Shown here piece by piece: positions 6,662 through 58,726 of a stretch of 64,000 bases of DNA (the stretch's first letter is position 1; each line of letters starts with the position of its first letter). The DNA is taken from sequence record MK509462, one strand, 5' to 3'. The DNA comes from Shigella phage MK-13. The notes below the pieces were generated by a model. It saw nothing but the letters and a program-made list of their open reading frames with translations, had not been told where the DNA came from and ran no database searches. The position numbers and the translations under genes are program-made.

Positions 6662-7312
6662 TCAGCGCTCCCGCGCCGGAAGAACTCCCACTGGTTCGAT
6701 ACCGTCCAACAGTAGGGAGTTCACCCCGACGTTGCTCAGCCTGATCCAGATCGTCCCCTCTGGCTTCACTTCGAAGATGTTCATCTCATTCCCAACAGCA
6801 TCGTTGTTGACAAACACACCCTGAGTTGCGATTCGTACTGGCTTGTCTGAGTCATTCATGATCTTGAACGTCACGATTATATCCGATGTTTCACTCAGTC
6901 GCCCAACCATGTGTTGCTTCAGTTTGGCGTAGAATGATGGATTAAAAGTGATGATGATGCTGTTGTTCTGAGAGTAATAAATACTTGCTGATAGGTATGG
7001 AATCTTCCCTTCATCGCCACGACGCAGGAGGGGAATCGTGGTCTTCCAGTATGGCTTGAGGGTGCTCGTGTTCTCCTCGAAGCAACCCAAAGGCACGAGC
7101 TTCTGGAAGGTCTGGAACTCTTGCACGATGATGTCCAGCATACCCTTGTTACAAGTAGGAACACTGGCCGACAACGTCACGGGCACGGTGCGTACTTCTG
7201 GGTTCCAGAGTTCGGAAACAGAAATTATTGGCGTGACAAAGATGCGACAGCTCGTAAGCAAGAGCATCGCGCATGCCAACAACAATCTACTGATCCCGCG
7301 CATCAGGGTCAC
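6662..7312 (-). CDS. putative lipoprotein
   Basis: N-terminus MTLMRGISRLLLACAMLLLTSC has signal-peptide shape with lipobox-like L-T-S-C; GTG start with GGAGA RBS (ATG alternative at 7303). Confidence 0.45.
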   Translation of the reverse strand: MTLMRGISRLLLACAMLLLTSCRIFVTPIISVSELWNPEVRTVPVTLSASVPTCNKGMLDIIVQEFQTFQKLVPLGCFEENTSTLKPYWKTTIPLLRRGDEGKIPYLSASIYYSQNNSIIITFNPSFYAKLKQHMVGRLSETSDIIVTFKIMNDSDKPVRIATQGVFVNNDAVGNEMNIFEVKPEGTIWIRLSNVGVNSLLLDGIEPVGVLPARER

Positions 7313-26083: not shown

Positions 26084-26133
26084 CGGCGGGGTATGATTAC
26101 CCCGTCTATTTGAAATGCAGGAACTATATCATG
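26084..26133 (+). repeat. intergenic hairpin cassette copy 1 (near-identical copy at 26643..26692)
   Basis: cggcggggtatgattaccccg...atttgaaa...tatatcATG; about 40 of 50 positions shared with copy 2. Confidence 0.7.
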
Positions 26134-26637
26134 ACCGATCAACAAATTCAAGATTTATTTTACCTCGCCCATGATAAGTCCCACATCATGCGCCCCGGTA
26201 CTGTTTCCCCTGCCGTCCGTGATCTGGTGCAAGAATTACGCGAACCACAGACGACCACACTTTATCGCGGGCTGCCTAAGGAGGACGTTGCGCGTTTAGA
26301 GATGTTGTTTGAACGAGGCGACATGTTCCAGACATGGGATTCTTGTCTTAGCTTCAGTGAACTGAAGCATGTGGCCAAACAATTTTCTAAATCGTACGGA
26401 ACCAAAGCTGTTGCCCGCATTTGTTACAAACATCGAAACGGACTCCCGGAGGGGCTTAATGTCTATGGTTCTCTAGAAAAATTTGTGAACAAAGGCGATG
26501 AATCAGAAATGGATATGCTGGACTTGGCGTCCATGGAGAAAGAATGGATATTCTGCCAGCCTCGCGTCATACCAGTTTCAAGAAAAATGGCAACAGACGG
26601 GACGATGGTTTTTACCGTATCACTTGTTACCCTATAA
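26131..26637 (+). CDS. hypothetical protein (168 aa), flanked by direct-repeat cassettes
   Basis: Start placed at ATG after conserved ctatatc context; bracketed by the 26084 and 26643 repeats. Confidence 0.5.
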   Translation: MTDQQIQDLFYLAHDKSHIMRPGTVSPAVRDLVQELREPQTTTLYRGLPKEDVARLEMLFERGDMFQTWDSCLSFSELKHVAKQFSKSYGTKAVARICYKHRNGLPEGLNVYGSLEKFVNKGDESEMDMLDLASMEKEWIFCQPRVIPVSRKMATDGTMVFTVSLVTL

Positions 26638-26642
26638 ACCCA

Positions 26643-26692
26643 CGGCGGGGTATGATTACCCCGCCCATTTGAAACCAAGAGACTATATCATG
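26643..26692 (+). repeat. intergenic hairpin cassette copy 2
   Basis: See copy 1. Confidence 0.7.
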
Positions 26693-27064
26693 AAAAAGTT
26701 AATCCTCGCTGTTGCCCTGCTGGGTGCTTCCTTTGCTGCTGTTTCCGCCCCTCCTGTCATCACCGGAGTGTCTACCAACGGCGTTTATGCTTTCAAGGCG
26801 TATGGCCAAGACCTCGTTCTGTATAAGAACGGGAAGATGATTGAGCGCTGTGTAGCGGATGGTGTAAACCGTGGGATCGACAATCAGGGCAGTCCGTTCA
26901 TCCTGGACTTCTATGCCTGCTCCAACGGGACGAAGACCTTTGGTGTCAAGACCTTCGGCAACGTCGCCGACGGCGGCTGGGGCTTCATGATCGAAACCCG
27001 CAACCGCCGCCCGGTCACGACCATTGAAGAAGAGTTCTTGATCTCTGTCGGGGGCACGTTATGA
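26690..27064 (+). CDS. putative secreted protein (signal peptide, 124 aa)
   Basis: N-terminus MKKLILAVALLGASFAAVSA is a classical Sec signal peptide. Confidence 0.5.
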   Translation: MKKLILAVALLGASFAAVSAPPVITGVSTNGVYAFKAYGQDLVLYKNGKMIERCVADGVNRGIDNQGSPFILDFYACSNGTKTFGVKTFGNVADGGWGFMIETRNRRPVTTIEEEFLISVGGTL

Positions 27065-27348
27065 CACCATCAGAGAGAAGTTCTATCAAGGAGATGATCA
27101 GAGACAAGGCGTGTGTTGGCCATACTCAGTCAGAGAACATCTTGCGCCTGATGGAGGTCAAGAATCATATCGACAATGGCCGATTCCAATCAGCGTTGTA
27201 TGGTATGCTGGAGTTTATATCGCGGTCATCTGATCTTGGCACGGTCCGATATCTTGACGATCTGACCAAGCTGCTGAACACGGGCGGGGAAACTTTCGAC
27301 ACCGCTCGTATCCTGATTGACGGTGGACCTGAAGAAGACGAGGTGTGA
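27061..27348 (+). CDS. hypothetical protein (95 aa)
   Basis: ORF overlapping upstream stop (ATGA). Confidence 0.45.
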   Translation: MTPSERSSIKEMIRDKACVGHTQSENILRLMEVKNHIDNGRFQSALYGMLEFISRSSDLGTVRYLDDLTKLLNTGGETFDTARILIDGGPEEDEV

Positions 27349-27458
27349 TGGTGGACATTGAATTTTGGGGTTGGCTTATTGGATGTTCATTGGGCGTCTT
27401 GCTCGTTTTGTTGTGTGAATATCTCGGAGCCGTACTGTGTAAGACATTTCACGCCTAA
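27348..27458 (+). CDS. hypothetical small membrane peptide (36 aa)
   Basis: Sub-threshold ORF, start overlaps upstream stop; single hydrophobic helix GWLIGCSLGVLLVLL. Confidence 0.3.
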   Translation: MVDIEFWGWLIGCSLGVLLVLLCEYLGAVLCKTFHA

Positions 27459-27491
27459 CTAAGGGATAATCCATATCCCGAGGTGAATCTC

Positions 27492-27941
27492 ATGTTCATG
27501 TCTTCCTTCATAGACTGGTTGAACATTATCAACGGCCTGAGGATTCCTGTCGGAAACCTCGGGCTTTCTCGTTCTTCTATGCCACAGATCGACGATGACA
27601 AGCAGCAGGCGTTCCATGACTACCTGGAGGAACTTGGCATCACCATCGACGCTGGCCAGGTTCCTATCAAATCCCTCCGTCTCACCCAGAACGAAATCAA
27701 CAAGATGAAGGTCTGGAAGATCATGAAGAACATCAGAAACAAGAAGCCCATGGGTCGGGTTTGGGTGTCTTCTGATAACTATGTGGTCGACGGCTCGCAC
27801 CGCTATGTCGCCGCCCTGAACATGGATGACCGTCAGCGCATCAAGGTCTACAAAGTGGACATGCCAGCGATGGAGTTCGTCAAGGTCGCCAAGCAGTTCA
27901 AGGGTGTGAAGTTCAGAACCGTGTCTGACGCTCGCTTCTGA
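27492..27941 (+). CDS. ParB/sulfiredoxin-like nuclease-domain protein
   Basis: VVDGSHRYVAA resembles ParB N-terminal-domain GxxR-type motif; GAGG RBS. Confidence 0.45.
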   Translation: MFMSSFIDWLNIINGLRIPVGNLGLSRSSMPQIDDDKQQAFHDYLEELGITIDAGQVPIKSLRLTQNEINKMKVWKIMKNIRNKKPMGRVWVSSDNYVVDGSHRYVAALNMDDRQRIKVYKVDMPAMEFVKVAKQFKGVKFRTVSDARF

Positions 27942-27963
27942 ATACGATAGTTTATTGAAACCC

Positions 27964-27992
27964 TTTACTCAACATGGTGATCCGCCTATCAT
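27964..27992 (+). promoter_or_regulatory. T4-type early promoter (-35 TTTACT, 17 nt, -10 TATCAT)
   Basis: cccTTTACTcaacatggtgatccgccTATCAT. Confidence 0.4.
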
Positions 27993-28020
27993 TTCATCCA
28001 ATGAAATAAGGAGAATCACC

Positions 28021-28707
28021 ATGAAACGTTTAATCCTCGGGGTCGTGCTGGCTGGTCTGGCATTACCCGCCGTCGCCAAGCTGAACTCCACAGGTGACAA
28101 ACTGTGGTCTGATCTTTCCTACTGTGCTGGGTTCTCCCAGGCAGTCGCCATCGACAAGTCTGGTTCCATAGAGAACTTTGCTGAACTCTGGAACACAGGC
28201 AACGTCTCCACTGCAGTTGTTAACGCTGGGATTGAGTTCAACCGTTACAAACAGGGAGCCTATAACCTCAAGGGCTACCTCAATGACGACGAATTTAATC
28301 GAGGCGGCATGGAGGCTGGCGATCTTATCATGACTGGGCGTATGGGCACCCAAGGCCGAATGACAGTCAGACAGTGCCGTTCTCTCCCTTCTCCGGCATT
28401 ACAGAAGGGTGTGCAGATAGGCCGCCGCCACCTGAACCTCATCAACGATGGCAATCAGTGCATCAAAGTATTCGAATACAGCGCTACGCAGACCTCTGAT
28501 CGAGTCCTGAAGAAGGAATGGCGCACCCGCGCCCTCGACCTCAGGGCATGGTTGGTGGAGAACGATTATTACTTTGAAGACAGGGTTCAGAACGGCCTGA
28601 AAGACCTGGCCACGAATCTGAGCGTGAACCTTGATGATCCTCGCATGTCGCGCGAACTCCAGCAGACTCGTGTTGACTGCGACAATATGATGAAGGAGAA
28701 CGAGTGA
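28021..28707 (+). CDS. putative secreted protein (signal peptide, 228 aa)
   Basis: MKRLILGVVLAGLALPAVA signal peptide; AAGGAG RBS. Confidence 0.55.
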   Translation: MKRLILGVVLAGLALPAVAKLNSTGDKLWSDLSYCAGFSQAVAIDKSGSIENFAELWNTGNVSTAVVNAGIEFNRYKQGAYNLKGYLNDDEFNRGGMEAGDLIMTGRMGTQGRMTVRQCRSLPSPALQKGVQIGRRHLNLINDGNQCIKVFEYSATQTSDRVLKKEWRTRALDLRAWLVENDYYFEDRVQNGLKDLATNLSVNLDDPRMSRELQQTRVDCDNMMKENE

Positions 28708-29021
28708 TGAAAGGTAAAATCCTACTCCTGCTGTTACTGATGGCCGGGTGTGTAAACGCCACACCACCGTCTAAACTGAATACCTGCGCCGCCTGGATGG
28801 AGACGTATCAGCAATTCCATCCGGACGACAAAGATACATCTATCCTCCTGTCTGACTTCGAGGGAGAGCTGAAGCGCCTTGATCTGTTCAGTGTTGATCA
28901 GATAGAGAATGCGCTGGACCTACCAATGATGATGTCTGCGGCCGAAAACAGCCCACAAACGAAGAAAGACCTGATGTATTGTCGGGGGATTGCCCAGGAC
29001 TTTGTCGGATTTCAAAAATAA
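28707..29021 (+). CDS. putative lipoprotein (104 aa)
   Basis: MKGKILLLLLLMAGC: signal peptide with lipobox L-M-A-G-C. Confidence 0.5.
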   Translation: MKGKILLLLLLMAGCVNATPPSKLNTCAAWMETYQQFHPDDKDTSILLSDFEGELKRLDLFSVDQIENALDLPMMMSAAENSPQTKKDLMYCRGIAQDFVGFQK

Positions 29022-29978: not shown

Positions 29979-30036
29979 ATCAATAACCTCGGGCGGCTAT
30001 CATAAAGTCGCTCCCTTTCATTTGAGAGACTATATC

Positions 30037-30699
30037 ATGGAAAAACTTTATTCTATTATCGTCGGTCCTGATCCTGACGGATTATTCTTCGCCCCGTTGT
30101 CTTATATTGCCCACGCCCGTATCGGCAGCCATTACGCATATTGCACACGTGGCCACGACGGTTCCAATGTCCTCCATTATAGCCGTTTTAACGATTTCCT
30201 GGCACTTCAACCAGAAGATGTTGTGTTGGCGCGTCGCGTGTTCATCGACTTCAACGCGATGCACAACAACGAAATCGACGCTCGCTATCATGCCATGCGT
30301 TCTATGGAAGGGGGAGACTGCATTTATCGCATCGACCATTTCGGCAAGTATGTTGAATCCATTGATTGGTTTATCTCTGATAAAGTGATGGGTGAAAGAA
30401 TCGTCACGACACCATGGGCGCATGCAGACCAACTTCGGGTGTCTACCGATGCGTACAAAGAAGTCGACAATCTGTGCAACAAGTTCCGCATCTCCGTGAC
30501 CTGTAATCAAGACCTGGGCGAAGAGATCCAATGGACAGCTGAGTCTCCTCATTTCAGCGACCTGGTGATGACGGCCGAAACCCGTTCCCGCGCTGTCGTT
30601 CAGTTGGTTCTGTGGGCATTCTACCAGCGCACCCCATTCTCCTACATGGGGCAGAAAGCTATTGACGAACTCCTGAAGTCTCACGCGGTGGAGGTATAA
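30037..30699 (+). CDS. hypothetical protein (220 aa)
   Basis: Conserved agagactatatcATG initiation context. Confidence 0.5.
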   Translation: MEKLYSIIVGPDPDGLFFAPLSYIAHARIGSHYAYCTRGHDGSNVLHYSRFNDFLALQPEDVVLARRVFIDFNAMHNNEIDARYHAMRSMEGGDCIYRIDHFGKYVESIDWFISDKVMGERIVTTPWAHADQLRVSTDAYKEVDNLCNKFRISVTCNQDLGEEIQWTAESPHFSDLVMTAETRSRAVVQLVLWAFYQRTPFSYMGQKAIDELLKSHAVEV

Positions 30700-31483: not shown

Positions 31484-33202
31484 GTGACAGCATTCAACCA
31501 ATATACCAAGGCGCTTGATGGCGTCGGACCAGTTAGCATAGACCGCATCAAGTCTCTTGCCACTGAGTTCTTCCCATACGACACCGCCAACCCAGGACAG
31601 ATGGAGTGCATCGTTGAAGCCGTTGATGCCCTTGTGAATAAGAAATTCAAACACGTGATCATCGAGGCTCCGACTGGTGTGGGCAAATCCCTCATTGGCA
31701 CTACCATCCATAACGTGCTTCGCCATCTGGTTCTTGAGCGCAACCCATATGGTCAGTTCCGCACGTCTATCACAACACCGACCAAAGGGTTACAAGATCA
31801 GTATGCGGCTGAAAGGGCAGTGGCGATAGACATCCTGAAGGGCAAGAAGAACTATCGTTGTCATATCAGCCCTGACCTGTATTACAATGCTATCCAGTGC
31901 CGTATGGCATGCCGAGATGGCCACTGTAATAAAAATCGTTGCCCATATGTTCAGGCTCGTCGTCTTTGGACGGACATCTCTTCTCTGCGCTGCACCAACG
32001 CCGCCATGATGGTGGAGATGTGCACGACGATCTGTATGAAGCCCGAAAACCGCGCCGATATGCTGATCCTTGACGAGTGCCATAAAATGCCCTCTACGCT
32101 CCTAGAGCACACGATCATGGAATACAGCATAAAGGCTGTGGAAGGGTTGCTTACGATCCCCGAGGGAGTGCCTATCGTGGAACTCATCAAGGATATCATC
32201 ATCCGCACAGAGAACTATGAATTGGGCAAGCTGTATTCCCTGTCTGGTGAGATGCATGCGATATTTGACGACCTGCATGACAAGGTTGAAGCCCTGCTGG
32301 AAACCCTTGAGGAACTGGTAGAGGACGAGCGCCTGACTGAAGCCCAGGTGATGAAGTTGTCGGACATCATTGACACCCTTCACAACCTCAGCGACTACTG
32401 TGGGATCATGGGGCAGACCAACGCCAGCACCTTCATCGTGCAGGAGAAGGACAAGGGCATGATTCAGTTCAAGCCTGTCATCGCATCTGATGTATCCCAG
32501 TTCGGCCTGTTCCGCAAGGGTGACTACCACGTTCACATGTCGGCGACCATTTGTGGGATTGACTCGTACGCTCGGTCACTGGGTATCCGTGAGGGCGAGT
32601 ACCACAAGATTCAGATCGGAAACCCTATCCCGATTGAGAACCGGAAAGTCAACTACATGCCCATCATGAAGATGACGGCGAACATGGGTGACTATGAGAT
32701 GAAGAAGCTGGCCGAATACGTGGATGAAATCATCGCATTCCACCCTGGGCAGTCTGGCATCATTCACACAGTAAGTTATGACCGCGCCCTGGCTCTACAG
32801 AAGTTCAGTAAGTACCGGAATATGATTCACGTTCCTCGTACTCGTAAGGCTCTAATGGACATCATGGAACACGCGTTCCGGACCAAGAAGCCTTGTGTCA
32901 TCGCCAGTCCGGCTATGGAAGAGGGGTATGACTTCAAAGGCGATTACAGCCGATTTCAGATCTTGATCAAGGTTCCATACGATTACCTTGGTGATCCTCT
33001 GGTGGCTCACGTCAACAGTGTAGACCCATCGGCGTACTTCAGGATGGCGGTACTGCGTATCGTTCAGATGTGCGGGCGTTCGGTCAGGGGCGTGAATGAC
33101 TGGGCTGCGACATACATCCTTGATTCTTCTTTTGAATCACTGATGATGCGCAACCCAGAGTTCTTCCCCGCTTGGTTTACTGATGCCGTGTTCGAGGTTT
33201 AG
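31484..33202 (+). CDS. DinG/XPD-like SF2 helicase with Cys-rich (Fe-S-type) insertion
   Basis: Walker A APTGVGKS, DECH box, eight Cys between them; GTG start with TAGGAGG RBS. Confidence 0.7.
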   Translation: MTAFNQYTKALDGVGPVSIDRIKSLATEFFPYDTANPGQMECIVEAVDALVNKKFKHVIIEAPTGVGKSLIGTTIHNVLRHLVLERNPYGQFRTSITTPTKGLQDQYAAERAVAIDILKGKKNYRCHISPDLYYNAIQCRMACRDGHCNKNRCPYVQARRLWTDISSLRCTNAAMMVEMCTTICMKPENRADMLILDECHKMPSTLLEHTIMEYSIKAVEGLLTIPEGVPIVELIKDIIIRTENYELGKLYSLSGEMHAIFDDLHDKVEALLETLEELVEDERLTEAQVMKLSDIIDTLHNLSDYCGIMGQTNASTFIVQEKDKGMIQFKPVIASDVSQFGLFRKGDYHVHMSATICGIDSYARSLGIREGEYHKIQIGNPIPIENRKVNYMPIMKMTANMGDYEMKKLAEYVDEIIAFHPGQSGIIHTVSYDRALALQKFSKYRNMIHVPRTRKALMDIMEHAFRTKKPCVIASPAMEEGYDFKGDYSRFQILIKVPYDYLGDPLVAHVNSVDPSAYFRMAVLRIVQMCGRSVRGVNDWAATYILDSSFESLMMRNPEFFPAWFTDAVFEV

Positions 33203-33966
33203 TAACCAGCGATAAACGACAGATGGCATTTGACATTCGGCTCCAGGGAAGTAACAGAGACTGTCATGCTATCTGTGTCTTGACTGAAGTCAATGGTGGC
33301 GAGAGGTTTGGTCTGAACATGGTTGTAGACGCTGTAGAACAGATCCTCGCCACGATATCCTACTTTTCCGTCGGTGTCCTGCCAATGACCCAGTGTCTCA
33401 TCGTAGACATGCACTCTGAACTCGATCATATGGAAGAGCGCCTTGGGGATGTCCTTGAGTACGCTGGTGCCAACCACAGGGATCTCAATGGAAGAGTCAT
33501 TGGAGTTCCCTTCATAGACCGAAGCCCATGCAAAGGTAGGATCACCCCCAGCAACCGGGGTACGCTTCCAGTATTGGAATTCGGGGTTGCCTGAAGCGTT
33601 CTTCTGAAGTAGAATGACCTCACCACCCGTGAAGTTCGCGGTGTCGATGTCGCCTCGCTCAAGTTCATCTGCCGGAGACCCAATAAATTTCCAGCCTTCG
33701 CGATCCAGTAAAGACTTATAATAGTCAGTGAACACGTTGCTGTCTTCTGCAGCGTTGATGGCATCTTTGAGGCCTTGGCCTGTTACCATCTCGTTGAGCT
33801 TCAACCACATGTTCTTGACGGCAGACGCTGCTGCGACTTGCCCAACAGTCCCACCTGCAGCATAATCATAGATGATATCTTCTGACTTGATAGCATCATT
33901 GATAGAAAGGAGCAATTGCTCAATCTGCGGGGCGGTGAGACTGAAACGATATGCGCGGGGTGCCAT
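33199..33966 (-). CDS. hypothetical late protein (255 aa), probably virion-associated
   Basis: Minus-strand ORF with GAGGAA RBS and an exact TATAAATA late-promoter motif about 35 nt upstream. Confidence 0.5.
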   Translation of the reverse strand: MAPRAYRFSLTAPQIEQLLLSINDAIKSEDIIYDYAAGGTVGQVAAASAVKNMWLKLNEMVTGQGLKDAINAAEDSNVFTDYYKSLLDREGWKFIGSPADELERGDIDTANFTGGEVILLQKNASGNPEFQYWKRTPVAGGDPTFAWASVYEGNSNDSSIEIPVVGTSVLKDIPKALFHMIEFRVHVYDETLGHWQDTDGKVGYRGEDLFYSVYNHVQTKPLATIDFSQDTDSMTVSVTSLEPNVKCHLSFIAGY

Positions 33967-34001: not shown

Positions 34002-34009
34002 TATTTATA
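34002..34009 (-). promoter_or_regulatory. T4-type late promoter motif TATAAATA (minus strand)
   Basis: Exact TATAAATA on minus strand upstream of 33966 start. Confidence 0.5.
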
Positions 34010-39891: not shown

Positions 39892-40506
39892 ATGACGATG
39901 ACAACGTTGAAGGCCATGGCCTTGTCCGTGACCTTTACCATTGCCAGCGGGAATGTGCACGCTTCCCAAAATACAAGTCAATGTGTTTATGATTTCTCTG
40001 AGCAACAACTTAATACGCTGGCAACTGCCTATCACATAGGCAAGACACAAGATCTTGGTTACACCCTGGCTGCCATATCTTGGCGAGAGAGCCGTGCTGG
40101 TGAAGATGTAGTGTCAATGCGCTACGGTCTCAAGGCGGCCAACATGGGAGCCTTTCAGAACAAGGTGAAGACAGTTGGCGATCGCGAAGGTTGTAAGAAT
40201 CGCAAGTGCTATGCCAATGTCGCCATCAAGTTGTTGACCGACCAAGAATATGCCGCGCAAGCCGCCCTCGATGAGATGCAGTTCTGGCTGACCTATCACA
40301 AGCAGAATGTACGCAAATCCCTCTCCTCTTACAATGCTGGCTTCGCCCGTAATCCCGCATCGAACGCTTATGCCGCTGACGTCGTGAAGAAAGCTAAATA
40401 TCTTCAGAAATGTGTGTCCTTCAAAGGCCGGACCATCTCCGAGGTAGATCCTCGGGTGATCGCCATGAACAAGCGCACGATAGAGAAACTGAAGAGGACA
40501 AGATAA
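39892..40506 (+). CDS. putative secreted protein (signal peptide, 204 aa)
   Basis: N-terminal signal peptide ...ASGNVHA; AAGGAA RBS. Confidence 0.5.
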   Translation: MTMTTLKAMALSVTFTIASGNVHASQNTSQCVYDFSEQQLNTLATAYHIGKTQDLGYTLAAISWRESRAGEDVVSMRYGLKAANMGAFQNKVKTVGDREGCKNRKCYANVAIKLLTDQEYAAQAALDEMQFWLTYHKQNVRKSLSSYNAGFARNPASNAYAADVVKKAKYLQKCVSFKGRTISEVDPRVIAMNKRTIEKLKRTR

Positions 40507-43770: not shown

Positions 43771-43778
43771 TATAAATA
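43771..43778 (+). promoter_or_regulatory. T4-type late promoter motif TATAAATA
   Basis: Exact TATAAATA 26 nt upstream of internal head protein gene start, after a terminator hairpin. Confidence 0.55.
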
Positions 43779-49415: not shown

Positions 49416-49483
49416 TACACACTCCCTCAAGTAGTTCACTTTCACTTTAAATACCTTCGCATTCATTGCGGAGGTATTTTCTT

Positions 49484-50278
49484 ATGGCCATTCTAAAACT
49501 TGGCAACCGTGGCACTGAAGTGAAGGCACTTCAGCAGAGCCTCAACAAAATCGGCTTCACCCTCGTCGCTGACGGCATCTTTGGTAAGGCAACAGAGAAC
49601 GCTGTCAAGACTGTTCAGGCGGGTGCGGGGCTTGTCATTGATGGTATTGTGGGTCCAAAGACCTCCTATGCTATTCGCAACGCCGGAGACGCCCATCAGG
49701 ATCACCTGACTGAGGCTGACCTTATCGACGCGGCCAACCAGCTGGGAGTTGACCTCGCCTCTGTGAAGGCAGTCAATCAGGTTGAATCCCGTGGCACTGG
49801 CTTCACCAAGTCTGGTAAGATCAAGACGTTGTTTGAGCGTCACATCATGTACAAGAAGATGATGGCGAAGTTCGGGCAGGCTCGGGCGAATGCTGCTGGT
49901 CAGATGTATCCAACCCTTGTCAGTCCAGTGGCAGGCGGGTACACGGGCGGCGACGCGGAGTTGGATCGACTTCACGCAGCCATCAACATCGATGAGGATT
50001 GTGCGTACGAGAGCGCTTCATACGGCCTCTTCCAGATCATGGGCTTCAACTGCCAGGTCTGTGGGTACGCCAACGCCAAGGAGATGTTCAATGACTTCCT
50101 GACGGGCGAACGTGCTCATCTGATGGCATTCGTGAAGTTCATCAAGGCCGATGCCAAGCTCTGGCAGGCTCTGAAGGACAAGAACTGGGCTGAGTTTGCG
50201 CGGCGCTATAATGGTCCGGCGTATGCCAAGAACCAGTACGACACGAAGCTCGCTGCTGCATACAAGAGTTTCAGTTAA
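49484..50278 (+). CDS. endolysin: peptidoglycan-binding domain plus N-acetylmuramidase-type catalytic domain
   Basis: N-terminal PG-binding repeat pattern (ALQ..L...GF....DGIFG..T..AV..FQ) and C-terminal ESASYGLFQIMGFN muramidase-like block. Confidence 0.7.
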   Translation: MAILKLGNRGTEVKALQQSLNKIGFTLVADGIFGKATENAVKTVQAGAGLVIDGIVGPKTSYAIRNAGDAHQDHLTEADLIDAANQLGVDLASVKAVNQVESRGTGFTKSGKIKTLFERHIMYKKMMAKFGQARANAAGQMYPTLVSPVAGGYTGGDAELDRLHAAINIDEDCAYESASYGLFQIMGFNCQVCGYANAKEMFNDFLTGERAHLMAFVKFIKADAKLWQALKDKNWAEFARRYNGPAYAKNQYDTKLAAAYKSFS

Positions 50279-57115: not shown

Positions 57116-58726
57116 TTACTCTTCGGTGCCGAAATTACCACCATTGTCTTTTAATTCTGCCTTGATATCAATCTCACCTGGTCCCGTAGGGGATGCAGGG
57201 GTTGCACCTGACAGAGAAGAAGCGCGACCAGCACCTTCGGCATATATGATGTTACCATTAATCGTCTGAGCAACCGTCAGTTTGTCGGCGATGATCTCTG
57301 TTGCCAGAATCTTAGGAACCTTCAACGTCCCGCCGACCTCCAGAGTCTCGCAGATGATGCGCAGAATATTCTGTGCTTGCAACTCAGCCAGGTCACTGAA
57401 TTTCATCAGCGCTGTACCCGCAACCACGTTGGAGTAGTTGTTGGAGTGAAGGTGATAGACCTCGCCAGTCTTGCGCTGCACTTCAGTTCCTTTGACCGTC
57501 AGGTTGTGGTCCCCGCCGACATAATAGCGCTTGTCAAACATGGTCAGGTCATAATGATCCTTCACTGACTTGTTGACGACGTCGCCGTTCGGGAGCATCT
57601 GTTTGTAGGAGCCGGACATGTGCATCCAATGAAGACGCTCACCACCAGGAGTGTCGTCCACCTCCATTATGTGACCTGCTCGGGATGCCATGACGTTGTT
57701 GTACGGGTACTTGGAGCCACCCGCTGCCGGAACCATAGTTTCGCCCGTGTTATCAATATCCTGTACGCGCCCTGTAGGAGCCGGAGTTGCCTGCTCTTTT
57801 GGGGTACGATCAGGGATAGGCTCAGACCATTTCCCGTTCTGTTGTGCTGGGGCGGCTGAAGCTGTATTCGCCGGACCAGGCCAGCGGTAGCCCAGGACTG
57901 ACGAACGGCTGAATCGGCTGACCTTCACTGAATCGGATTGGTTGCCACCGATACACCAGACATAGTTTGCATCGAACTTCTGTACAAACGCCACGTGTCC
58001 AAATGTAGGGTTGTTACCGCGCCGGAAGACTACGATAGCACCATATTGTGGCGCTGACAGTGCACTACCCCATGTAAGGTAAGATCGGGCAAGAGCGGAG
58101 CGCGTAGACGTGTATCCAGCCTGCAACATAACCCAGCCCACGAACGCCGCACACCACGACACTTCATCTTCAGAAGCACCAAGGGAGGTTGTCTTGTGAT
58201 ATTCTATAATGCGCGGGTTGTTGTTGAACTTTCCGGCGTACTCCTTGACACCCAGCTCACCACGAGCGATGGTCATCCATTTTTCAGGATCATACCCACC
58301 AACAGGTGGTTGTGGATCTGGTTGTGGTTCGTCTTCTTGTTTCACAGGAACGTCAGTGACGGCGTTGTACGCCTGACGTTCTACCGATTGAACGACCTGT
58401 CCGAGAGCCAGCGGGTTCGTGTCAGCTCCATCAGTGGGACTTGCCCCAGGCCAAGTCCAAGTGATACGCAGGTTCTGGTATGCTTCGTCAAGGGCGAACC
58501 CCATAACCTCAGTGCCAGGAATGATACCCGTTGGAGACCAACCTAAACCAGCAGAGGAGGCGTTTGAAGCAGGCATCAGTACCTTCGCCCATGGGAGTTT
58601 GTCCGTAGGCAGGAGGACGGTGTCATCAGTGTGGACGCCATAGATGCGGACGGCGACGCGCCCGTTTTGGTCTGGATCGTTGACATCTTCAACGGTGCCA
58701 TAAAACCATCTCATATTGTCTAACAT
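57116..58726 (-). CDS. baseplate central spike gp5-like with CHAP-type peptidoglycan hydrolase domain
   Basis: N-terminus MLDNMRWFYGTVEDVNDP matches T4 gp5 OB-fold start; central WCAAFVGWV...GHVAFV resembles CHAP Cys/His peptidase rather than T4 lysozyme. Confidence 0.7.
   Translation of the reverse strand: MLDNMRWFYGTVEDVNDPDQNGRVAVRIYGVHTDDTVLLPTDKLPWAKVLMPASNASSAGLGWSPTGIIPGTEVMGFALDEAYQNLRITWTWPGASPTDGADTNPLALGQVVQSVERQAYNAVTDVPVKQEDEPQPDPQPPVGGYDPEKWMTIARGELGVKEYAGKFNNNPRIIEYHKTTSLGASEDEVSWCAAFVGWVMLQAGYTSTRSALARSYLTWGSALSAPQYGAIVVFRRGNNPTFGHVAFVQKFDANYVWCIGGNQSDSVKVSRFSRSSVLGYRWPGPANTASAAPAQQNGKWSEPIPDRTPKEQATPAPTGRVQDIDNTGETMVPAAGGSKYPYNNVMASRAGHIMEVDDTPGGERLHWMHMSGSYKQMLPNGDVVNKSVKDHYDLTMFDKRYYVGGDHNLTVKGTEVQRKTGEVYHLHSNNYSNVVAGTALMKFSDLAELQAQNILRIICETLEVGGTLKVPKILATEIIADKLTVAQTINGNIIYAEGAGRASSLSGATPASPTGPGEIDIKAELKDNGGNFGTEE

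Follow-up and report, generated by a model that had tools for sequence, protein, structure and literature searches.

Introduction

Two-component spanins such as lambda Rz/Rz1 and T4 PseT.3/PseT.2 are encoded by adjacent, overlapping genes, the first product having an N-terminal hydrophobic segment and the second, of ~100 amino acids (aa), an outer-membrane lipoprotein signal, and in the final step of lysis they bridge the inner membrane and the outer membrane and fuse the two. T4 Spackle (Sp), an inhibitor of the gp5 tail lysozyme, has 97 aa, a Sec signal peptide, two Cys residues near the ends of the mature chain, and a helical mature domain. The T4 antiholin RI, also of 97 aa, is small, secreted and helical with two Cys residues; the T4 holin T (218 aa) is mostly periplasmic and has a 34-residue cytoplasmic N-terminus; T5 Llp and Cor are receptor-masking lipoproteins. 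In T4, sp and imm.1 are early genes, the first for a periplasmic protein and the second for a predicted membrane protein, and the spanin genes pseT.2 and pseT.3 are early or early-middle (PMC9697503). Here we examine positions 26690-29021 of a 64,000-nucleotide (nt) window of record MK509462 (Shigella phage MK-13), the window being the whole stretch of DNA that was analysed. A first-pass annotation of this DNA had read the run of genes as a candidate superinfection-exclusion or envelope module. Public records already name its last two genes, here called F and G, i-spanin and o-spanin, a label that the annotation did not mention. We find that F and G probably encode an exported periplasmic pair that is not a spanin, and we propose tentatively, by analogy, that the pair could serve in the response to superinfection, through exclusion or lysis inhibition. 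The features central to this argument are as follows.

28021..28707, + strand: F (g28021), a predicted 228-aa Sec-exported periplasmic protein, phrog_4260, 'i-spanin' in some records
28707..29021, + strand: G (g28707), a 104-aa protein, phrog_3843 'Rz-like spanin', a predicted lipoprotein in this phage
27964..27992, + strand: promoter-like element TTTACT-N17-TATCAT, directly 5' of F

The 5 kb around the stretch match 273 phage records, and because the best matches, at 91-97% identity, are Shigella phage ChubbyThor, Salmonella phage pSal-SNUABM-02, Ag3, SKML-39 and P46FS4, the phage is placed by similarity as an Agtrevirus-like member of the Ackermannviridae. The genes of the stretch were compared by tblastn over 21 related loci, and the junction and promoter comparisons covered 20 loci. 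All signal-peptide and lipobox calls were made by classical rules together with conservation in homologues.

F and G as a predicted periplasmic pair

The N-terminus of F reads MKRLILGVVLAGLALPAVA↓K, where the arrow marks the predicted cleavage site after A19, and consists of a 3-residue n-region (MKR), a 12-residue hydrophobic core, and then P-A-x-A↓K. An alignment of 17 homologues shows no change at P16, A17 or A19, and the small-x-small site (positions -3 and -1) is kept in 33 of 33 family members, down to 26% identity, while the hydrophobic core varies. In homologues at 26-35% identity to F the signal ends in SAWS↓E, ASA↓A, ANA↓G or VHA↓R. Conserved small residues at -3 and -1 combined with a variable core are the pattern expected of selection for signal-peptidase cleavage, and since an invariant signal-peptidase I site ends the signal, F is most likely released into the periplasm, without an inner-membrane anchor. 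A further argument, that the hydrophobic core is too short for a transmembrane (TM) domain, was dropped because the uncharged run of the T4 holin T has only 15 residues.

The invariant cysteines of F are Cys35, Cys119, Cys147 and Cys220. Invariant across all F relatives are only C35 and C220, several Gly, Ala and Ser residues, M104, and D205; C119 and C147 are carried by a segment inserted in the long forms, and the shorter F proteins of Erwinia phage Bue1 and Serratia phage 2050H1 align to the N-terminal half and the C-terminal Cys motif. These invariant residues are structural (Gly, Ala, Ser, Cys) and have no catalytic look, and from this pattern F looks like a disulfide-stapled structural or binding protein, not an enzyme. 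The AlphaFold2 (AF2) model of F, made from a 17-sequence alignment, is unusable, with a predicted local distance difference test score (pLDDT) of 39. A search of 1.84 billion representatives returned 10 matches to F, in Ackermannviridae-like contexts wherever this could be checked, and F keeps 82-99% identity in phages of Salmonella, Escherichia, Klebsiella, Dickeya and Serratia. Sequence searches of the PDB with F, by profile or single sequence, were empty, as were NCBIfam searches with F and G.

G begins MKGKILLLLLLMAGC, and the lipoprotein that the first-pass annotation had placed at 28707 is borne out for this phage: the lipobox LMAGC, with Cys15 and Val at +2, conforms to an outer-membrane lipoprotein signal, and the same is true of Ag3, Maynard, Marshall and P46FS4. 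Across the family, however, the lipobox Cys is missing from the representatives of 39 of the 46 G clusters (~85%), and the lipobox from 16 of 19 IMG/VR loci. G lacks a lipobox in Vi01 and CBA120 (both by direct translation), in LIMEstone1, in the Klebsiella/Serratia group, and in the four most divergent lineages (Bue1, 2050H1, L027 and L028). One variant 97% identical to the G of the window has Ser in place of the lipobox Cys, followed by a usable VNA↓T site. G is thus predicted to be soluble in most family members, with a lipoprotein signal only in Agtrevirus and the Marshall/Maynard lineage. The family offers a clean natural case of a secreted protein that would become soluble or lipid-anchored by changes in its fast-diverging signal peptide alone.

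The AF2 model of G, from a 32-sequence alignment reaching 35% identity, has a pLDDT of 88.5 (~97 over residues 21-100) and is a compact five-helix bundle; the invariant cysteines are Cys27 and Cys92. Foldseek comparison of this model returned no structural relative in the PDB (best E 1.5) and only the protein's own family in BFVD, and PDB sequence searches, by profile or single sequence, were empty. The F and G genes occur in ~270-280 phage records, all with genus names seen in Ackermannviridae, and judged by these records the pair is one found only in that family.

Expression of F and G

Both hexamers of the promoter-like element upstream of F are kept in 20 of 20 loci, including those with a diverged spacer. 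The general form TTTACT-N16-18-TATNNT has six matches in the window against 0.11 expected, all of them intergenic:

4197, 25751, 27964, 41175, 48250 and 55518, + strand: copies of TTTACT-N16-18-TATNNT

The -35 part, TTTACT, resembles the T4 early-promoter sequence GTTTAC. For CBA120, informatics failed to find early promoters (Kutter et al. 2011; PMC3184105), and TTTACT-N16-18-TATNNT may be this missing class. F has a strong ribosome-binding site (AAGGAG), its stop codon overlaps the start codon of G (TGATG or ATGA) in 20 of 20 loci, and the Shine-Dalgarno sequence of G is located within the codons of the invariant C-terminal MKENE of F. By these sequence signals, F and G are one predicted unit, translationally coupled, behind a promoter-like element of its own.

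The ratio of nonsynonymous to synonymous substitution rates (dN/dS) is 0.04-0.05 for mature F and mature G wherever dS is unsaturated, and the signal peptide of G is free to diverge (dN 0.45-0.81). In the first 19 codons of F (28021-28077), dS is 0.06-0.58, compared with 0.56-3.6 in the mature region; because it lies far below the mature value, it suggests a nucleotide-level constraint at the 5' end of F, in translation initiation or mRNA structure.

An argument from timing against a role in lysis, built on the sigma-70-like promoter and the lack of TATAAATA, was dropped, as T4 pseT.2 and pseT.3 are early or early-middle too. An exact T4-type late promoter, TATAAATA, does occur at 34002-34009 on the minus strand, ~36 nt 5' of where a virion structural gene (33199-33966, minus strand) probably starts, and the only other exact copy in the window is at 43771. 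For Ackermannviridae-type phages the late consensus was given as unidentified (Kutter et al. 2011; PMC3184105).

The spanin annotation

Several relatives name G 'Rz-like spanin' or 'o-spanin' and F 'i-spanin', and the label is traceable to phage Marshall, with Kongari et al. 2018 the one primary source found. In that paper and in SpaninDB the Marshall pair is entered as a 'separated' two-component spanin (PMC6139136). With 300 periplasmic residues, this pair stands out from the dataset by its length (PMC6139136), and Pepcoil detects no coiled coil in either orthologue (PMC6139136 Table S3). Table 10 of the paper gives as spanin-less Vi01, SFP10, Maynard, SJ2 and SJ3, and also CBA120, PhaxI, ECML-4, phiSboM-AG3 and Dickeya RC-2014 (PMC6139136). 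Because Ag3 and Maynard, which stand in this table, carry the same lipobox-bearing pair as Marshall, the label is internally inconsistent. Our literature search found no functional study of the F-G pair, and nothing usable among Ackermannviridae transcriptomes or functional lysis studies.

Spanin properties were compared with the pair. F does not look like an i-spanin: in place of an anchor, it has the invariant P-A-x-A↓K and the universally kept small-x-small site, by the rules stated above. The lipoprotein signal of an o-spanin is present in the G of this phage but is not family-wide. The extended or coiled-coil shape that is typical of spanins, if not universal, was likewise not seen, G being modelled as a compact bundle and the Marshall pair lacking a coiled coil. 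Spanin homology was sought in Pfam, with no match, in PHROG, which returned only the proteins' own families, and by hidden Markov model (HMM) and BLAST comparison with T4 PseT.2 and PseT.3, which gave no signal. The anchor of T4 PseT.3 is a 19-residue uncharged segment without a signal-peptidase site, and its ectodomain is Cys-free and highly charged; F differs in these features. The endolysin gene lies elsewhere in the window:

49466-50278: endolysin with muramidase and peptidoglycan-binding domains, ~20 kb from the stretch

The database reading, in which F as i-spanin and G as o-spanin bridge and fuse the two membranes at the last lysis step, draws on real likenesses. The genes are adjacent and overlapping, F has an N-terminal hydrophobic segment, G is of about the right length and in this phage has a valid outer-membrane lipoprotein signal, phrog_3843 bears the spanin name, the Marshall orthologues are in SpaninDB, and no rival spanin candidate is known for Ackermannviridae. 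The true spanin genes of T4 are expressed early and, like F and G, lie apart from the endolysin; location and timing therefore do not speak against this reading. Against it stands the predicted topology. The signal-peptidase site of F is invariant behind an n-region of only 3 residues, and the lipobox of G is absent from most clusters, among them Vi01, CBA120, LIMEstone1 and all distant genera, so that in most of the family neither protein is predicted to be membrane-anchored; a pair of which neither member is tethered is incompatible with a machine that bridges and fuses two membranes. The globular helical bundle predicted for G, the exceptional length and missing coiled coil of the Marshall pair, the spanin-less listing of Ag3 and Maynard in the very paper that lists Marshall, and the lack of homology to Rz/Rz1 or PseT.3/PseT.2 point the same way. 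We regard the spanin reading as very unlikely, and the annotation of F and G as probably wrong on the predicted topology.

Phages of the Ackermannviridae (ViI, CBA120, LIMEstone and relatives) see wide use in biocontrol and therapy, and most are entered as spanin-less in the reference spanin survey. Spanin labels spread by PHROGs and RefSeq through ~270 genomes falsely suggest that the outer-membrane step has been explained, and a pair without spanin topology reopens that question.

Proposed role and alternatives

F and G are a family-specific, strongly conserved, predicted co-translated pair, and as such a defined candidate for exclusion or for control of lysis timing. Each would fold with disulfide bonds, the number of invariant Cys residues in each mature domain being even, and the two would form a stoichiometric periplasmic complex that acts by binding and not by catalysis. 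Since the lipid anchor is optional, the target must be accessible from the periplasm, and since the pair is limited to one phage family yet highly conserved over the phages of many hosts, the target is probably a conserved, family-specific component. The role would lie in the response of the infected cell to secondary infection, a reading chosen because G shares the layout of Sp and RI (~97 aa, secreted, two Cys), the periplasmic proteins with which T4 handles secondary infection, Sp through exclusion and RI as antiholin. In one version, like T4 Spackle, the pair would block the cell-wall-degrading tail hub of an incoming relative; in another, it would be a periplasmic antiholin for the lysis inhibition of CBA120. 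This phage shows T4-like lysis inhibition at high multiplicity, to which no genes have been assigned, and no holin or antiholin was identified for CBA120, ViI or AG3 (PMC3184105). The explanation as a whole, role included, is offered as a possibility that we would not yet call probable. Superinfection exclusion by proteins of the stretch, the function that the first-pass annotation had suggested, is plausible by analogy.

One analogue is Sp: G, by the rules, the AF2 model and the invariant Cys residues, likewise appears to be a small Sec-exported helical periplasmic protein with a disulfide, and it too is the product of a virulent myovirus related to T4. G has no sequence similarity to Sp, however, and Sp acts alone whereas G has an obligatory-looking partner in F. 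The targets would also differ, as the tail-hub hydrolase of these phages (the gp5 homologue) has a CHAP/NlpC-P60 domain in place of T4 lysozyme (PMC3184105). In the window, the tail hub with this domain is encoded at 57116-58726 on the minus strand. RI and T resemble G and F in size and in being small and secreted or mostly periplasmic, and the lysis inhibition of CBA120 would give such a pair a place; but homology is absent, F lacks the cytoplasmic N-terminus of T and has a signal-peptidase site, and the coupling of F and G has no counterpart in T4, where t and rI are unlinked. To Llp and Cor the likeness, a small phage lipoprotein in the infected cell, holds for the G of this lineage only: the anchor is dispensable family-wide, G is coupled to a second periplasmic protein, and the family scans of the stretch proteins returned no Llp- or Cor-like family. 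The MliC/PliC lysozyme inhibitors are an inhibitor family that occurs both as lipoproteins and as soluble periplasmic proteins, but they are beta-barrels of bacterial origin whereas G is modelled as all-helical, and they serve as an analogy only.

Several points weigh against a superinfection-response role or against parts of the proposed mechanism. PDB searches, Foldseek and direct comparison revealed no likeness of the pair to T4 Sp, RI or T in sequence or fold; direct comparison with T4 T, RI, RI.1, Sp, PseT.2 and PseT.3 gave no signal, and Pfam and PHROG scans of the stretch proteins returned no known exclusion family, Imm and Cor included. The evidence for an interaction between F and G is the coupling of their genes, and the cleavage of the F signal peptide is predicted from rules and conservation. 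With a pLDDT of 39, the F model leaves room for an enzymatic fold, and with an uncharged run of 15 residues in the T4 holin T, a short core alone does not exclude anchoring of F. Exclusion genes, moreover, tend to be accessory and to evolve fast; F and G are core genes and strongly conserved.

The remaining alternatives bring in further genes of the window:

39892-40506, + strand: g39892, 204 aa with a signal-peptide-like N-terminus (…ASGNVHA↓S), phrog_600
26690..27064, + strand: g26690, accessory gene for a protein of 124 aa, predicted to be exported to the periplasm, with two conserved Cys; phrog_5474 (function unknown)
27061..27348, + strand: g27061, 95 aa, no export signal, phrog_4458; overlaps g26690 via ATGA
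27348..27458, + strand: g27348, a single-pass hydrophobic peptide of 36 aa in a variable slot, its start overlapping the stop of g27061 (TGATG)
27483..27941, + strand: g27483, a 152-aa conserved cytoplasmic protein, phrog_2859, weakly ParB/Srx-like

The pair could have a periplasmic function unrelated to superinfection, either keeping the SLT-like g39892 in check up to lysis or binding a component of the host envelope or a host defence system; host targets might include peptidoglycan enzymes, Tol-Pal, Lpp or proteases. The signal-peptide-like N-terminus of g39892 and its near-threshold SLT match fit the first form, the high identity of F over phages of five host genera fits an Enterobacterales-wide target, and the strong purifying selection on the pair agrees with either. 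Yet g39892 is tied to F and G by shared export only, neither homology nor a significant fold match links the pair to inhibitor or immunity families, and a host target alone leaves its confinement to one phage family unexplained; we consider such a function unlikely. Rather less likely again is that F and G, as two folds without known relatives, are the missing lysis-control or envelope-breaching system of Ackermannviridae, acting as the sensor or antiholin of CBA120 lysis inhibition or as an anchor-independent complex that would destabilise the outer membrane. The first-pass annotation had taken the whole 2.3-kb run, ParB-like protein included, as one co-functioning module. Its genes are indeed tightly packed or overlapping, four of the six have export or TM signals (nominal hypergeometric p ~9e-4, which becomes ~0.05-0.1 once the post-hoc choice of window is allowed for), and the order ParB-like gene, F, G is found in every lineage examined. 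Conserved order is weak evidence of joint function, however, because Ackermannviridae genomes are broadly syntenic. Nor is the run inherited as a whole: only the ParB-like gene, F and G, with g29070, are kept, g26690 is missing from most Kuttervirus loci (9 of this type), and a match to the TM peptide g27348 appears in only 2 of the 21 loci (68% and 38% identity). In the ParB-like protein no export signal is present, and its gene is parted from F by the promoter-like element and, in some phages, by a homing endonuclease gene or ~0.9 kb of extra DNA. A single module is accordingly very improbable.

The protein g39892 itself deserves comment. The SLT lytic-transglycosylase match of g39892 lies near threshold (E = 3.7e-4, 20.5 bits against a cutoff of 21.3), a PDB sequence search was empty, and by its sequence the protein may be a second, Sec-exported muralytic enzyme; the signal-peptide-like N-terminus agrees with the secreted protein that the first-pass annotation had noticed at 39892. 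The orthologue in ChubbyThor is named RegB endoribonuclease, an annotation that looks wrong.

The ParB-like gene and the conserved core

By tblastn, the conserved core consists of the ParB-like gene (64-99% identity), F (26-99%), G (34-97%) and g29070 (30-95%). The order ParB-like gene, F, G, with the F-G overlap, recurs in the most divergent lineages (Bue1, 2050H1 and two metagenomic contigs), and the distant F homologues P0069 and P0070 show the same synteny. The true start of g27483 is probably the ATG at 27492. The motif VVDGSHRYVAA, from which the ParB/Srx-like call had been made, is present, with VVDGSHR invariant and 61-87% identity across genera, but profile support for the call is weak: the one match, to the PHROG 'ParB-like partition protein' phrog_1033, has E = 1.7e-4 over residues 69-123, and no match was found in Pfam, NCBIfam or the PDB, a family profile search included. 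No signal peptide was found in g27483. The gene is a conserved neighbour of F and G, and its partnership with the pair is only a candidate one.

The region between the ParB-like gene and F holds a NUMOD3 homing endonuclease gene in ChubbyThor (gp150, L001 4942-5772) and ~0.9 kb of extra DNA in loci L011 and L019. These insertions keep the promoter-like element of F and the F-G coupling intact.

In other Ackermannviridae genera the same neighbourhood holds a Band-7 lipoprotein, small TM proteins and additional signal-peptide proteins. Just downstream of G, Bue1 encodes a 259-aa lipoprotein (gp092, L025 4903-5682, phrog_200, lipobox LLAGC), which by eye was likened to the Band-7/SPFH lipoprotein of L028 (7237-8028, lipobox LLTGC), and 2050H1 a 91-aa lipoprotein (L026 4577-4852, LASC). 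The neighbourhood downstream of G seems to gather envelope genes.

Within the window, the stretch belongs to a + strand block with a vWA-domain protein and an acyl carrier protein upstream and an HU-like protein and a DNA helicase downstream. Export or TM signals occur in 10 of the ~95 genes of the approximate gene set, and four of these 10 are among the six genes of the stretch. Every ORF (open reading frame) listed by the first-pass annotation is present on the + strand where it had been placed. Its signal peptides at 26690 and 28021 stand as rule-based calls kept in homologues, the 36-aa peptide at 27348 has one strongly hydrophobic segment as described, and the tight or overlapping starts recur as ATGA at the 27061/27064 junction and TGATG at 27348 and at 28707. 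The envelope targeting that it had read in the run agrees with these export signals and with the further exported and membrane proteins of the neighbourhood in other genera. Its second lipoprotein, at 6662-7312, is also found (lipobox LLTSC, DUF7424), though on the minus strand, opposite to the run; this gene runs against its neighbours and adjoins a tail-completion gene.

Variable genes upstream

The gene g26690 and the 36-aa peptide are variable accessories. The ORF of g26690 begins MKKLILAVALLGASFAAVSA, and the N-terminus of the protein reads MKKLILAVALLGASFA↓AVSA↓PP. Relatives keep the signal peptide and the two Cys residues, with AHA↓D or AQA↓D in the Klebsiella/Serratia group, and there is no Pfam match. 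The next gene, g27061, evolves fast between genera (31-93% identity). Four loci (L006, L013, L017 and L020) encode, between the orthologues of g27061 and of the ParB-like gene, 55-60-aa single-pass proteins with a strongly basic C-terminal tail (…FYRFFTKYEKRDAERRARQEDIRNRRENW); on sequence features, these proteins in the g27348 slot are holin-like in form, in a phage family with no assigned holin. Upstream of g26690, a 175-aa ORF, g26110 (26110-26637, + strand; likely true start ATG at 26131), matches only the C-terminal 160 of the 1480 positions of the PHROG profile for an RNA polymerase ADP-ribosylase (Alt-like), and this Alt-like gene is sporadic, being present in 5 of the 21 loci.

Two further elements mark the starts of genes in this region:

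26644..26692, + strand: GC-rich hairpin (GGCGGGGTATGATTACCCCGCC), then the translation-initiation cassette cATTTGAAA...GACTATATC-ATG, preceding g26690
3478, 4590, 25826, 26125, 26684, 30031, 34006, 41246, 55093, 55591 and 55842, + strand: copies of the cassette core TATATCATG

The cassette has the form cATTTGAAnnGAAGGAAC-TATATC-ATG. For its core, TATATCATG, 0.31 occurrences would be expected in the window and 11 are present, each at the start of a + strand gene. The small genes so marked form a class to which g26690 belongs and F and G do not. Nearly identical hairpins (GGCGGGGTATGATTACCCCGCC) lie at 26085-26106 and 26644-26665, just upstream of g26131 and g26690, and a related one at ~29990-30013, 5' of the gene starting at 30037; these GC-rich hairpins may be terminators or RNA-processing elements.

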